DNA of 64,000 bases from a virus: IMG/VR virus record IMGVR_UViG_3300035034_002581; one strand, given 5' to 3'. The translations under genes and the position numbers were made by a program. Positions 41,998-60,648 of this stretch are shown in pieces. The notes under the pieces are model-generated. The model saw only the letters and a program-made list of their open reading frames with translations, made no database searches and was not told the DNA's origin. Numbering within the stretch: position 1 is the first letter of the stretch; the number at the start of each line of letters is the position of its first letter.

Positions 41998-43225
41998 AAA
42001 GGACTTGCTTTAAAGTATGAACGATCTCTACGAGATCTTTTTGTGCTGCCATTACATCATCAATCTCTTTGTATGCTGCAGGTGTCTCGTCGATAACACT
42101 CTTATCCTTCTTGCATTCAACACCCTCAGTTGCATCACGGTGCATCTTTAGTGTGAAGGTCTTGCGTGCTTCACCTCTAGACATTTTTCTTCCTGCTCCG
42201 TGGCTACAAGAATCGAAAGATTCCTTGTTACCCAATCCACGAACGACGTAAGACTTATCTCCCATCGAGCCAGGAATGATACCGAGCTTACCCTTTGCAG
42301 CACACACAGCACCCTTTCTTGTCAAGATCACATTCTTTCCGAAGTGCTTTTCACGGGAGATGTAGTTGTGGTGGCAGTTAACTGCAGTCAAGGATGCATT
42401 GAACTTACGCTTAAGTACCTTCTTCATTGCCGCTATGACCTGATCCATCATCAGTTCACGGTTGACTCTAGCATAGTTCTGTGCCCATTCAACAGCCTCA
42501 ACGTAATCGTTGAAGTGTGCAGTACCTTCAGGCAAATATGCAAGATTCTCGTCCTTCAAGTTGATGAAGTGACGTCTCATATCTTCCTTGGCAAGTCGGA
42601 TAAAGTAGCTACCAATTTTGTTTCCAATACCACGTGAGCCTGAGTGGAGCATGACCCAGACTCTGTTACTCTCGTCGAGGCAAACTTCGATGAAGTGATT
42701 CCCAGTTCCCAACGTTCCTAGGTGACGGAATGTATTACCGCCTGCAACTTTAGGATGCTTAGCAACGATGCTATTAAACGTTACTTCAAGTTCAGACCAC
42801 GCATTCGCCTGTGCTACTGGGATCTTGTTCTCATCCCAACCGCCCTTATCATACTTTCCTCCATTGTTTGTCCTGCCGTGTGGAACAGCAGCTTCAATAG
42901 CAGTACGCATTGCTTTCAAACTAGAAGGCAGATCCTCAGCAGTTAGATCAGTCATTGCTGCACACATGCCGCATCCGATGTCAACTCCAACTGCGGCAGG
43001 AATTACTGCTCCGACAGTCGGAATGACGCTACCAACAGTAGCTCCCATACCCCAGTGAACGTCAGGCATAGCTGCAATCCACTTGTGAATGAAAGGCATT
43101 TCTGCAGCATTAATTAGCTGTTGCTTTGCAGCATCTTCAACAGGGACACCTTTTGTCCACATCTTGATTAGACCCTTCTCAGTCTTTAAAATTTCATAGT
43201 TTGATTTGTTCTTGCTGTTTGACAT
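41984..43225 (-). CDS. rtcB: RtcB-family RNA 3'-phosphate/2',3'-cyclic phosphate ligase
   Basis: 413 aa; conserved RtcB metal/GTP-binding motifs (MGATVGSV, GCGMCAA, HSGSRGIGNKIGS, NCHHNY, SCSHGAGR). Confidence 0.85.
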   Translation of the reverse strand: MSNSKNKSNYEILKTEKGLIKMWTKGVPVEDAAKQQLINAAEMPFIHKWIAAMPDVHWGMGATVGSVIPTVGAVIPAAVGVDIGCGMCAAMTDLTAEDLPSSLKAMRTAIEAAVPHGRTNNGGKYDKGGWDENKIPVAQANAWSELEVTFNSIVAKHPKVAGGNTFRHLGTLGTGNHFIEVCLDESNRVWVMLHSGSRGIGNKIGSYFIRLAKEDMRRHFINLKDENLAYLPEGTAHFNDYVEAVEWAQNYARVNRELMMDQVIAAMKKVLKRKFNASLTAVNCHHNYISREKHFGKNVILTRKGAVCAAKGKLGIIPGSMGDKSYVVRGLGNKESFDSCSHGAGRKMSRGEARKTFTLKMHRDATEGVECKKDKSVIDETPAAYKEIDDVMAAQKDLVEIVHTLKQVLCVKG

Positions 43226-46673: not shown

Positions 46674-48485
46674 TCACTTTCTTGACGAAATCATCTGTTT
46701 TAAGACATTCCGCAAGAAAGCTTCAGACATGTTGTCTGTTGTGTTTAAGTAAGCTTCTACTTCTGCTTTGTCAAGTGCCTTTCCAAGCTCGCCACCCTTG
46801 ATGCCTTGTGCCATAAGATCTTTTGCACTTGACGCAGGCGGGCTTTCTGCAAAACTAACAAACTTACGGGCATCAGACGGGCTGAGAGAAGAAGATGGCG
46901 AATTGTTTGAAAAATCGATCACGTCCTGGCTCGAAAGCTTGTACTTCTTTCCAAACTTGATGTATTCTTTCTTTAAGTTCACAACATTATTGATGTCAAT
47001 TGAGCTTAATCGGATCAAGAAAGAAACGATGTCACCAACTGAATTCTTAAATCGCATTCTCTTCAACGTCTTCAGGGTGGCTGACGGATCATTAGCTGAC
47101 AACATTGTAGCAATTTGAACCTCAATACTTCCACCTAGAGAAATTCCACTCTCAGGACCCAGAACCCTCAGCCCAGGAAATATTTGGTCAGTTACAGAAA
47201 GTTCAACTGCCCAATCAATGTACTCTAGCGGATCTACTGCGGTGAGAATGCCCTTTACAAACTCATCTTGAATTCGGTCAGGAGACACACCCTTTAGGCC
47301 GCTCTTTGCTACCTGAGTAACAGCGTCTTCGGTCTCTTGATCAAGTCTTGATCCCATTCTCGCAGCAAATCTTATCGCTCGTAGCACACGAAGTGGATCT
47401 TCATTAAATCTTTCAATGGGATTGCCTACTGCACGAATCACTCTGTTTTTGATGTCTTCAATGCCACCTACGAGGTCAACAATTTCTTTCTCATCAATAT
47501 CGTAAAAAAGTGCGTTAACTGTGAGATCTCTTCTTTTAACATCGTCTTCGATAGAGGCCCACCTAACTTCGTCAGGACGCCTACCAGATCCAATATCTTC
47601 ACGGAATGTAGCGATCTCGTACTCGTTACCTTCGTCAGTCCAAACACGAACAACACCAAAGTCCTTGCCTGTTAGATCGATCTTAAAGTTGAGATTTGAC
47701 AGCACTTCAATTACACGGTCGGGTGTAAGATCAGTTGCAAGGTCATAGTCCTTTGGCGTTTTGTTCAGAAGTGTATCCCTAACAGCGCCACCAACTACAA
47801 AGAGGTCGCCGTATCTTTTAATTACATTGTGGATCGCAATGAGATCTTCTGGTAGATCCATTGACATGGGCCTTCGAATCTCTTCACTCTCTTTGATCAT
47901 AGAACTCATTTTTGACTCTTTAAGATCGAGGATGTCTTGATAGTTACAATTTGCAATCTTTTGAAACCTTTCCACTGGGTGCCCAACGCCTTCGACTCCA
48001 TAAAAATCAGCAGCATTTTCAAATGAACTTAAGTGATGATGCCTATCATCCCAAAAGTGAGCTTCTGATATCACTGGATGTTGTGCAAGGATCTTTTTAA
48101 TCTGTGACACCTTAAAGGATTCTGTGTCATTGGTCGTTTTCAAGTATACAGCGTCAAAATTAAGACCAGCTTGATGCAAAAGTTCAGCAACTCTGTATCT
48201 AATTGCGGCATTTGAGTTCGGCCTCCCAGTCATTAACACACAGAGAATGTTAGGATCAGCAATTGATTGCTTAGCCAAAGCAACAATCTCAGTATTCCAC
48301 CAATCCTTACTCGGAACTTCAGGAACACAAGGCTCAGATAAAGAAGCTGGGTAAGTCCACCAGCGACCAGGACCTTTATGTGCAGGCCAATCTGTTGGGT
48401 AAGTTGGACTTCCGAAAAGTGTTCCATCGAAGTCAAAAACATGAAGTATTAGTGTCATCTTGGTATCTCTGTAATTGATCCGCAA
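46674..48485 (-). CDS. Fusion protein: N-terminal HAD-superfamily (polynucleotide 3'-phosphatase-like) domain + class II tRNA nucleotidyltransferase (CCA-adding enzyme) head/neck
   Basis: HVFDFDGTLFG (HAD motif I) and HFWDDR (motif IV) in first about 190 aa; then LFVVGGAVRDTLL, DYDLATDLTP (DxD) and RRDLTVNAL motifs diagnostic of class II CCA-adding/polyA polymerase family. Confidence 0.75.
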   Translation of the reverse strand: MRINYRDTKMTLILHVFDFDGTLFGSPTYPTDWPAHKGPGRWWTYPASLSEPCVPEVPSKDWWNTEIVALAKQSIADPNILCVLMTGRPNSNAAIRYRVAELLHQAGLNFDAVYLKTTNDTESFKVSQIKKILAQHPVISEAHFWDDRHHHLSSFENAADFYGVEGVGHPVERFQKIANCNYQDILDLKESKMSSMIKESEEIRRPMSMDLPEDLIAIHNVIKRYGDLFVVGGAVRDTLLNKTPKDYDLATDLTPDRVIEVLSNLNFKIDLTGKDFGVVRVWTDEGNEYEIATFREDIGSGRRPDEVRWASIEDDVKRRDLTVNALFYDIDEKEIVDLVGGIEDIKNRVIRAVGNPIERFNEDPLRVLRAIRFAARMGSRLDQETEDAVTQVAKSGLKGVSPDRIQDEFVKGILTAVDPLEYIDWAVELSVTDQIFPGLRVLGPESGISLGGSIEVQIATMLSANDPSATLKTLKRMRFKNSVGDIVSFLIRLSSIDINNVVNLKKEYIKFGKKYKLSSQDVIDFSNNSPSSSLSPSDARKFVSFAESPPASSAKDLMAQGIKGGELGKALDKAEVEAYLNTTDNMSEAFLRNVLKQMISSRK

Positions 48486-48931
48486 ATATCAACAGGATCG
48501 ATTGTCTCAAAGTCGCTTAATAGAAAATCATTTGAGTCTCTAGGTTTCGCGTCTAATTCTGGGTTGATTGCAATTGTAACGTGAGGAAAGTTAGGTCCCT
48601 TCATCGGGACTGGAAAGTTTGACGTATCAACAAAAGCCGTGATTATTTTATCATTTCGAGCGATCTTAGTTACTTTCAAACACTCATCGGCGCCGAGCCA
48701 CCTAGGAGGAGTTCTAAAACTCTTTCCCTGCTCAACGGGAGAAATGATGGTCATATGATGGCTATTAACTTTCCATCCTTGCGGCGCGAGAGACGCTAAT
48801 TTGCTTTGAGAATCTTCGTCTAGAACAAATGCTGTATAGTAGATCGACTTATCAGGGTTTAAGGTCATTTCCCTCAATAGTGCTCTTACTACTTCTCTAA
48901 CTAAACTAGACATTAATCTAACCCTAGGCAA
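48455..48931 (-). CDS. Hypothetical protein
   Basis: 158-aa ORF. Confidence 0.35.
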   Translation of the reverse strand: MPRVRLMSSLVREVVRALLREMTLNPDKSIYYTAFVLDEDSQSKLASLAPQGWKVNSHHMTIISPVEQGKSFRTPPRWLGADECLKVTKIARNDKIITAFVDTSNFPVPMKGPNFPHVTIAINPELDAKPRDSNDFLLSDFETIDPVDICGSITEIPR

Positions 48932-58795: not shown

Positions 58796-59824
58796 TCACA
58801 GACCGAATGTCAGATCATCCAGGTAGTTGAAGAACCACTTTCGTGCTGCACCCTGGACGGTCGCCGTCACTTCACCCTTTTCAAGCTCGCTACACTCGAT
58901 CGTGTCAGTCTCTTCCTTCAACACGTCCTTGACAACCCATCCTAGGAACTTACCAGTAGACTTGCGATCGAGTGGTGCCTTCATCATCTGTAGTGCTTCG
59001 ATGCCTTGGTTGAGACGCGCTTCAGTCACAACTGCTGCAGTGAAGTCCTCAATCGCAGCCAAACGTTCAGGTGCGACAGGAATCTTCTCACGTGTCTTGG
59101 ACACCTTATGCTTCTCACCCTTGGTCTTGAACCAGACGTCTGACAACTCCCAACCTGGTGTGACGCATGTCCAGACAACTCCTTCACCTACACCCTTGTG
59201 TCCTAGTGCTGCAGCGATTGGGCATTCACGCTCAACACTGTCAGTCACGTGTGAGAGTTCGTCCACAGACAACTTAGGATCGTTGAAGTTGATGGAGGTC
59301 GTGAACGTCTCGAAGTGATTGACGTTCAGGAATCGTGGGTCTTCACTTGTGACATCACTCATGTCCTCAGCACTCATCCAAGTGCAAGTCTCTTCTTCAC
59401 CTGGGTTTACGCAGTCGAGAACAGCGAATAGTACGAACACCTTCTCATGTTGATTGATTGCAACACCCTTCTGAATGCCCTTTCCACACCATTCTCCGAA
59501 GTAGGTTCGCACTACATCTGGGTCATCATGAGGTACAGCCCAATCCAGATTGGATTGTGACATAAGACCTGCAAACTGACAATTGTCGTTCCCTACTGTC
59601 AGTTCGCGAGTACGACTCTGAAACTTGATGGGCTGGCCTCGCTGTACTACAACACCTACGTTTGTCCCATGCAGCTTTACAGTGCCACGGAACTTGAGTG
59701 TTGGAATCGGCTTTGTGTCGTCATACAGCGGTACGTCTTGTTCGTCACAACCTGTGTATGTTGCCCGAAGACGGACTGTGTTGACAGCATTTCGAAACTG
59801 ATTGATGGATGGAAACTTGTTCAT
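58796..59824 (-). CDS. Rnl2-family (T4 RNA ligase 2-like) ATP-dependent RNA ligase / nucleotidyltransferase
   Basis: Motif I KLHGTN (T4 Rnl2 KIHGTN), motif IV GEGVVW, motif V FKTKGEKH; 342 aa. Confidence 0.65.
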   Translation of the reverse strand: MNKFPSINQFRNAVNTVRLRATYTGCDEQDVPLYDDTKPIPTLKFRGTVKLHGTNVGVVVQRGQPIKFQSRTRELTVGNDNCQFAGLMSQSNLDWAVPHDDPDVVRTYFGEWCGKGIQKGVAINQHEKVFVLFAVLDCVNPGEEETCTWMSAEDMSDVTSEDPRFLNVNHFETFTTSINFNDPKLSVDELSHVTDSVERECPIAAALGHKGVGEGVVWTCVTPGWELSDVWFKTKGEKHKVSKTREKIPVAPERLAAIEDFTAAVVTEARLNQGIEALQMMKAPLDRKSTGKFLGWVVKDVLKEETDTIECSELEKGEVTATVQGAARKWFFNYLDDLTFGL

Positions 59825-59834
59825 CTGTTGTATC

Positions 59835-60038
59835 TCACTTTCTGACGTTACATGATGCCTGATGAAAGGAACATAACATGGTCGAGATCACGTGAGCTCT
59901 TGTAAAAACTTGGTTCACCACCGTACTGTGGAATTGAGTACACTTCGTAGTCACCAGTGGATAGGTTTTGGTAGATTTCCAGGCCGGCTCGCCGATGACG
60001 TCTTCGGGTACAATGAATTGGTACTTGTTCATGTCCAT
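59835..60038 (-). CDS. Small hypothetical protein (start placed at MDMNKYQ after RBS AAGGAAGGAACAAC)
   Basis: ORF-track start at 60080 lies within the tandem repeat in the 5' leader. Confidence 0.3.
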   Translation of the reverse strand: MDMNKYQFIVPEDVIGEPAWKSTKTYPLVTTKCTQFHSTVVNQVFTRAHVISTMLCSFHQASCNVRK

Positions 60039-60045
60039 GTTGTTC

Positions 60046-60093
60046 CTTCCTTGTTTATGTGCAACCTTGTTTATGTGCAACCTTGTTTATGTG
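60046..60093. repeat. Tandem repeat, 16-bp unit CCTTGTTTATGTGCAA x3, inserted in the 5' leader between cassette copy 3 and its ORF
   Basis: cttgtttatgtgcaaccttgtttatgtgcaaccttgtttatgtgtaag seen directly. Confidence 0.7.
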
Positions 60094-60109: not shown

Positions 60110-60148
60110 TTGTAAGTACATTATACCACTTGCAGCGGCTTTTTGCAC
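60110..60148 (-). promoter_or_regulatory. Promoter-leader cassette copy 3
   Basis: ttgtaagtacattataccacttgcagcggctttttgcac. Confidence 0.55.
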
Positions 60149-60648
60149 TCGACATGAATGTTATTGCAGGTACAACAACAAAAGCATCCAGAGAGTTCTT
60201 CTGATACACACTACATGGTTGCTGAATGTCAGGTCAGGACTTGTTCTTTCGTTTCTCTTCTCGTGCCTCTTGAATCGCAGTTGTTAGTTCATCGAGAAGC
60301 TCCTCTGCCAGCTCGAGAGACAACACCCAATCGAGCACCTCAATCACACCCACTTCAGAATCATAAGTCACTCCTGGCACCATGTCGCCACTCCTCATTC
60401 GTGTGTCTTGTTATACGATGCCAGGGCACCAACTACCGTTTTACTGCTAGACGCACGACGCACGAAGTCGAGGTTGCAGGTTGTATCTCACTTTCTGACG
60501 TTACATGATGTCTGACGCTAGGAACTCTGCATATTCCAGTTCACGTGCACTCTTGTAAAAAACCGGCTCACCAATGCACTCTTCTGTTGTGATGAACTGG
60601 TGTGTTCGCCTGTTTGGTACTGATGACATGATGATTCCTTCCTTGGTT

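Follow-up and report, generated by a model that had tools for sequence, protein, structure and literature searches.

T4 RNA ligase 2 (Rnl2; gp24.1/RnlB; PDB 2HVQ, 2HVR, and 1S68) is the closest characterized and structurally solved relative of the phage ligase described here, ahead of Rnl1, Rnl3, Rnl5, and DNA ligases by both profile and fold. Both proteins have two domains and a length of ~335–342 amino acids. The N-terminal adenylyltransferase domain of each carries motifs I, III, IIIa, IV, and V in a shared order, with a KxHGTN motif I; neither protein has an OB domain, and each has a small C-terminal domain, modeled as helical in the ligase, with an Arg–Asp pair that aligns between the two. 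In T4 Rnl2 the C-terminal domain governs nick recognition and is needed for 5′-adenylylation, which is step 2 of the reaction (PMC3884662; PMC1807946). The biological role of T4 Rnl2 has been stated to be unknown (PMC3884662). A first-pass annotation of this DNA had T4 using Rnl1 and Rnl2 with Pnkp to repair PrrC-cleaved tRNA-Lys, but this is wrong for Rnl2 because the pathway uses Rnl1 (PMC3884662).

A His in place of Asp at the second position past the motif I lysine (KxHG) is a feature of the Rnl2 family in its broad sense (T4 Rnl2, RELs, and relatives, as grouped by Ho and Shuman; PMC1807946). However, KxHG is common to Rnl2 and Rnl5 and is insufficient alone for an Rnl2 assignment. The Rnl5 enzymes (Deinococcus DraRnl and Naegleria NgrRnl) belong to PF09414 and, like the ligase, have KLHG in motif I and a Thr placed two positions ahead of the Lys; DraRnl has TEKLHG (PMC1807946) and the ligase T-V-K-L-H-G. 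Nick-sealing chemistry is presumed for both. Rnl5 carries an N-terminal OB module and lacks a C-terminal domain (PMC1807946), whereas the ligase is modeled with the reverse arrangement, having no N-terminal OB domain and a helical C-terminal domain. In ATP-dependent DNA ligases motif I reads KxDG and an OB domain lies at the C terminus; the ligase has KLHG and an all-helical domain in these places. The trypanosome RNA editing ligase REL1 (PDB 1XDN) has an Rnl2-family adenylyltransferase domain, and only its N-terminal fragment has been solved (PMC4599027). REL1 belongs to the editosome, a context unrelated to the phage setting of the ligase.

Genes annotated as RNA ligase 2 in Vequintavirinae-type phages, Thalassavirus, and other large phages are 35–42% identical to the ligase over its full length. 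Its own subfamily includes RnlB of Erwinia phage Hena1, gp180 of Vibrio phage Pontus, and XAI97345 of Leptolyngbya phage Lbo-JY46, and the searchable literature yielded no member of this subfamily that has been characterized. The RNA ligase 2 relatives lie among small hypothetical early-region genes without a conserved partner, as does the ligase in the 64,000-nucleotide stretch of viral DNA analyzed here (the window). Unlike the relatives as described, the window ligase shares its genome with RtcB and an array of 38 tRNAs.

The ligase gene and its family

The ORF list and the sequence gave a complete ligase coding sequence of 342 amino acids, starting with ATG and ending with TGA (Table 1). 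The motifs KLHGTN, GEGVVW, and FKTKGEKH noted in the first-pass annotation are all present and their canonical order was confirmed. Within motif I, K50 is predicted to be the AMP-accepting lysine and H52 is the histidine of the Rnl2/Rnl5 type. The ORF is also intact, with a single F4L change, on a contig from an independent metagenome sample (JGI 3300039191), which matches the window at 99.8% identity across 2,126 nt.

Table 1. Features of the ligase gene and of its surroundings in the window.
Feature	Position	Strand	Basis
Predicted Rnl2-like ATP-dependent ligase, coding sequence	58796..59824	-	ORF, PF09414, phrog_548, PDB profile, AF2, Foldseek
N-terminal nucleotidyltransferase (adenylyltransferase) domain, residues 1–242	59099..59824	-	Pfam match 46–234, model, profile–profile
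Motif I, K50-L-H-G-T-N55	59660..59677	-	Read from sequence
Motif III, F109-G-E111-W-C-G114	59483..59500	-	E111 aligned with T4 E99, invariant
Motif IV, G213-E214-G-V-V-W218	59171..59188	-	E214 aligned with T4 E204, invariant
Motif V, F232-K233-T-K235-G-E-K-H239	59108..59131	-	K233/K235 aligned with T4 K225/K227
C-terminal all-helical domain, residues 248–342, preceded by disordered linker 243–247	58799..59083	-	
Promoter-like cassette GTGCAAAAAG-N13-TATAAT, extended -10 TGGTATAAT	60120..60148	-	Sequence, copy count
Next promoter-like cassette, 5 nt past the ligase stop codon	58763..58791	-	
Small ORF directly upstream of the ligase	59835..60080	-	Sequence
RtcB, 3′-phosphate/5′-OH RNA ligase, the other RNA ligase of the window	41984..43225	-	PF01139, E = 2.4e-129
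Possible end-healing/tRNA-repair pair	46674..48931	-	
158-amino acid protein with two HxT motifs, 2H phosphoesterase-like	48455–48931	-	Motifs and sub-threshold Pfam match, E = 0.004
HAD_SAK_1 phosphatase fused to a CCA-adding/poly(A)-polymerase-type nucleotidyltransferase	46674–48485	-	

The Pfam RNA_ligase profile (PF09414) matched residues 46–234 of the ligase with 48.1 bits (cut-off 27; E = 2e-12) over profile positions 4–170 of 171. The PHROG family 'RNA ligase' (phrog_548) matched residues 1–336 with E = 9.4e-60 (profile positions 3–340 of 341), and a T4-type Rnl2 used as a control belongs to the same PHROG (E = 3.4e-132). Homologous protein clusters number at least 2,483 at E ≤ 1e-5, and the family is of uniform length. 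With the ligase sequence alone, a phmmer search of the PDB gave only chance-level matches (E ~0.7–0.9), so that a family profile was required. When a profile of 48 family members was used, the sole matches in the PDB were to T4 Rnl2 (2HVQ and 1S68; E = 2e-12), spanning both domains (chain residues 36–332), and no Rnl5, DNA ligase, or REL1 chain was matched at E ≤ 1. Profile–profile comparison with hhalign aligned the ligase family with T4-type Rnl2 over 287 columns (probability 97.7%, E = 1.4e-12), and the N-terminal domain alone gave a probability of 98.1% with E = 1.1e-13. The motifs and family matches of the ligase are far beyond chance.

The ligase is separated from T4 Rnl2 itself by several other comparisons. 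The curated Rnl2 equivalog TIGR02307 was its only NCBIfam match, with 18.1 bits (E = 0.0015) where the cut-off is 197.15 and the positive control, Rnl2 of phage ST0, scored 383 bits. The NCBIfam model for Rnl5 (TIGR02306, DRB0094) gave no match. The T4 Rnl2 C-terminal domain profile (PF18043, T4_Rnl2_C) matched neither the full ligase nor its isolated C-terminal domain, even at E ≤ 10 (control 7.7e-23); it was absent from all 120 family members listed, while nearly all T4-type proteins carry it. Identity to T4-type enzymes is ~17–25%. Judged by these sequence comparisons, the ligase cannot be called a close orthologue of T4 Rnl2 and falls outside the narrow T4 Rnl2 group. The description of the enzyme as Rnl2-type, with a KLHGTN motif almost identical to T4 KIHGTN, is borne out to the extent that T4 Rnl2 is the nearest characterized and solved relative. 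The motif overstates the kinship, given the failure of TIGR02307 and PF18043 and the KLHG of DraRnl.

The subfamily is a large, deep-branching phage group whose members are often labeled RNA ligase 2 in GenBank phages. Apart from its own fragment, the closest relatives of the ligase found in phages, viral contigs, and metagenomes are ~42–48% identical to it. The viral-contig scan gave no relative above 41% identity, and megablast of the 4-kb ligase neighborhood against phage genomes gave no match. The ligase is a member of a large phage family that has already been annotated, which is an ordinary finding.

Catalytic residues and predicted structure

We transferred residues of T4 Rnl2 to the ligase with an HMM-based map, which agrees with the family-profile PDB match and with hhalign. 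In this map T4 K35, H37, T39, N40, R55, and E99 correspond to K50, H52, T54, N55, R71, and E111 of the ligase, and F119, E204, K225, K227, R266, and D292 correspond to F133, E214, K233, K235, R270, and D300. These 12 positions are invariant or nearly so among the 48 family members: K50, H52, N55, E111, E214, and K233 occur in all 48 and K235 in 47. G53, which aligns with T4 G38, is likewise found in all 48. From mutagenesis in the Shuman laboratory, E99, F119, D120, E204, K209, K225, and K227 of T4 Rnl2 are reportedly essential, and the F65/F66 positions are also said to be of importance. The importance of K35, R55, R33, H37, and the R266–D292 pair is documented in published work (PMC4599027; PMC1807946). 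A different route to the map, adding T4-type Rnl2 to the family alignment with MAFFT --add, was rejected because the register slipped in the second half and placed E204 on W218.

Some positions of T4 Rnl2 are replaced throughout the family. These are D120 (A134 in the ligase), K209 (T219), F65/F66 (N81/C82), and R33 (T48), the last of which is reported to be essential in T4 Rnl2 (PMC1807946). T4 E34 is a V in the ligase. Because of the changes at R33, D120, K209, and F65/F66, substrate handling may differ from that of T4 Rnl2. The family also has invariant residues of its own that the T4 type lacks, namely GEWCG, E-C-P, and W296. There is a ~15-residue N-terminal insertion in the ligase relative to T4 Rnl2, seen in the position of the motif I lysine (K50 versus K35).

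An AF2 model of the ligase (pLDDT 92.7) has an alpha/beta domain, a disordered linker, and a helical C-terminal domain. The adenylyltransferase domain starts at the N terminus in this model, the additional, helical domain follows at the C terminus, and no OB domain is predicted anywhere in the protein. Foldseek ranked T4 Rnl2 best (E = 6e-11), with REL1 third (8e-7), followed by Rnl1 (1e-5), NgrRnl (4e-5), and DNA ligases (1e-5 or worse, at least five orders of magnitude below T4 Rnl2); Rnl3 likewise gave 1e-5 or worse. The motif I lysine is present, an OB domain is absent, and DNA ligases are not the best matches, so neither of the two findings named as refuting the first-pass annotation was made.

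The C-terminal domain was also compared alone. By fold, its top two PDB matches are both T4 Rnl2 (TM 0.59), and the profile–profile comparison with T4-type Rnl2 gave p = 0.011 against 0.14–0.28 for controls. A C-terminal domain HMM scored one T4-type sequence at 3.8 bits, which is not significant. The T4 R266–D292 salt-bridge pair maps to R270–D300 of the ligase, which is invariant in the family. Taken by itself, the C-terminal domain gives suggestive evidence of a strongly diverged homologue of the Rnl2 C-terminal domain.

Promoter-like cassettes and possible RNA-repair genes in the window

The location of the gene within a region of repeated promoter-like cassettes, as first proposed, was confirmed. 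The cassette GTGCAAAAAG-N13-TATAAT occurs in nine copies where 0.02 are expected, all on the gene strand, and eight of the nine lie within 58.2–63.2 kb. A generic sigma-70 scan did not call the cassettes because their upstream element is non-canonical. The cassette upstream of the ligase probably drives a two-gene unit made up of the small ORF and the ligase, with promoter function proposed from the sequence, and the next cassette would mark the 3′ boundary of this unit. The small ORF has a likely ATG start at 60038 behind a AAGGAAGGAA ribosome-binding site, ends 8 nt before the ligase ATG, and is probably co-transcribed with the ligase. It had no PHROG or Pfam match, and scans against both that covered ten small ORFs of the neighborhood gave none. 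A 101-nt stretch of the small ORF is repeated at 60480–60580 with 79% identity. No conserved functional neighbor of the ligase was found in the window or in four annotated relatives.

The coexistence of the ligase with RtcB was also confirmed. The RtcB of the window is ~60% identical to jumbo-phage RtcBs and lies 16 kb from the ligase. This pairing had been singled out in the first-pass annotation, but it is not unusual, since RtcB and Rnl2 in one phage have already been documented in a survey of phage ligase combinations (PMC7824862). Comparative genomics in the same work linked ATP-dependent phage ligases to kinases and phosphoesterases (PMC7824862). In the window there are 38 tRNAs and a tmRNA. 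A role for the ligase in tRNA splicing was considered and set aside because the two unusually long tRNAs lack introns and instead show long variable arms. When every minus-strand ORF of the 64 kb was scanned for a Walker-A motif, PhoH and PrkA alone were found, and thus no Pnkp-like or other P-loop polynucleotide 5′-kinase.

Proposed function and alternatives

The best overall explanation, and one we hold to be very probable, is that the gene encodes a functional ATP-dependent polynucleotide ligase, from an Rnl2-like branch of the covalent nucleotidyltransferase superfamily, that would seal structured RNAs beside RtcB. The analysis shows where the protein belongs by sequence and fold and that its catalytic residues are conserved; the activity, substrate, expression time, and biological role are what we infer. 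By homology, K50 would attack ATP to form ligase-AMP, the AMP would be moved to a 5′-phosphate end, and an RNA 3′-OH would then attack the adenylylated end to seal the break. The most likely preferred substrate, by analogy, would be a 3′-OH/5′-PO4 nick in base-paired RNA. The gene would be expressed as the second of two behind a repeated early-type promoter cassette. The phage is large and heavily invested in protecting translation, with its tRNAs, tmRNA, RtcB, HAD-CCA enzyme, and 2H-like protein. In such a phage the ligase may seal broken tRNA or rRNA with native or healed 3′-OH/5′-PO4 ends, and would complement RtcB, which joins 3′-P (or 2′,3′-cyclic-P) and 5′-OH ends.

Among the alternatives, the one that survives best, although we consider it doubtful, is Rnl1-like repair of anticodon loops after cleavage by host anticodon nucleases, with the 2H-like and HAD proteins healing the 3′ end and a kinase encoded elsewhere in the genome phosphorylating the 5′ end. 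The very large tRNA set, the tmRNA, the HAD_SAK_1-CCA enzyme, and the 2H-like protein in the window are consistent with this, as is the reported phage link between ligase, kinase, and phosphoesterase (PMC7824862). However, the 64 kb hold no P-loop polynucleotide kinase, the healing candidates lie 10 kb away from the ligase, which has no conserved partner in its relatives, and the RtcB of the window can join nuclease-type ends directly. In addition, enzymes of the Rnl2 type favor nicks in duplexes, and the specificity for anticodon loops belongs to Rnl1 (PMC3884662). Somewhat less probable, and unlikely in our estimation, is that the clade recognizes its own particular substrate, such as a tRNA or rRNA structure broken by a host ribotoxin to leave 3′-OH/5′-P ends, and acts as a dedicated counter-defense partner to RtcB and not as a generic nick sealer. 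This is proposed because the C-terminal domain escapes T4_Rnl2_C and because of the family-wide changes at T4 R33, D120, and K209.

It is less likely again that the ligase is a true orthologue of T4 Rnl2 with the same substrates and the same role in infection. T4 Rnl2 is the best solved match by profile and fold, the two are in one PHROG with equal length and domain order, and GenBank relatives are labeled 'RNA ligase 2 (RnlB)'. Against these points are the TIGR02307 score, which is less than a tenth of the cut-off, the missing PF18043 match, the low identity, the replacements at R33, D120, and K209 across the family, and the N-terminal insertion. Action on RNA–DNA hybrid nicks (3′-OH RNA beside 5′-P DNA) in replication or repair, and not on RNA damage, is improbable. 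T4 Rnl2 can seal nicks in which only the 3′-OH strand is RNA (PMC3884662), and in Paraglaciecola virus GD1 the homologue directly follows a DNA ligase gene near nucleases and a sliding clamp; however, this neighborhood is kept neither in other relatives nor in the window, where no replication genes flank the ligase.

There is very little likelihood that the motifs have mislabeled an Rnl5-type enzyme (DraRnl/NgrRnl) or an ATP-dependent DNA ligase: the resemblance of T-V-K-L-H-G to TEKLHG, the coverage of Rnl5 by PF09414, and the presence of NgrRnl and DNA ligases among the Foldseek matches are outweighed by the lack of an OB domain, the helical C-terminal domain, the absence of a TIGR02306 match or of any such PDB chain at E ≤ 1, and Foldseek E-values that are 5–6 orders worse. 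Just as improbable is an inactive relic or a nucleotidyltransferase that is not a ligase, for although a few positions essential in T4 are substituted, the nucleotidyl-transfer motif residues are kept in 48 diverse members of a large family of uniform length, two samples carry an unbroken ORF that differs between them by one conservative change, and the model is of high confidence.

As it stands, the ligase is a routine annotation. The separation of its widespread clade from T4 Rnl2 proper means that annotations equating the two are less precise than they appear. Ligases of this kind are potential reagents for RNA ligation. A phage with this ligase, RtcB, the HAD-CCA enzyme, the 2H-like protein, a tmRNA, and 38 tRNAs would provide a reasonable system for asking which ligase repairs what.

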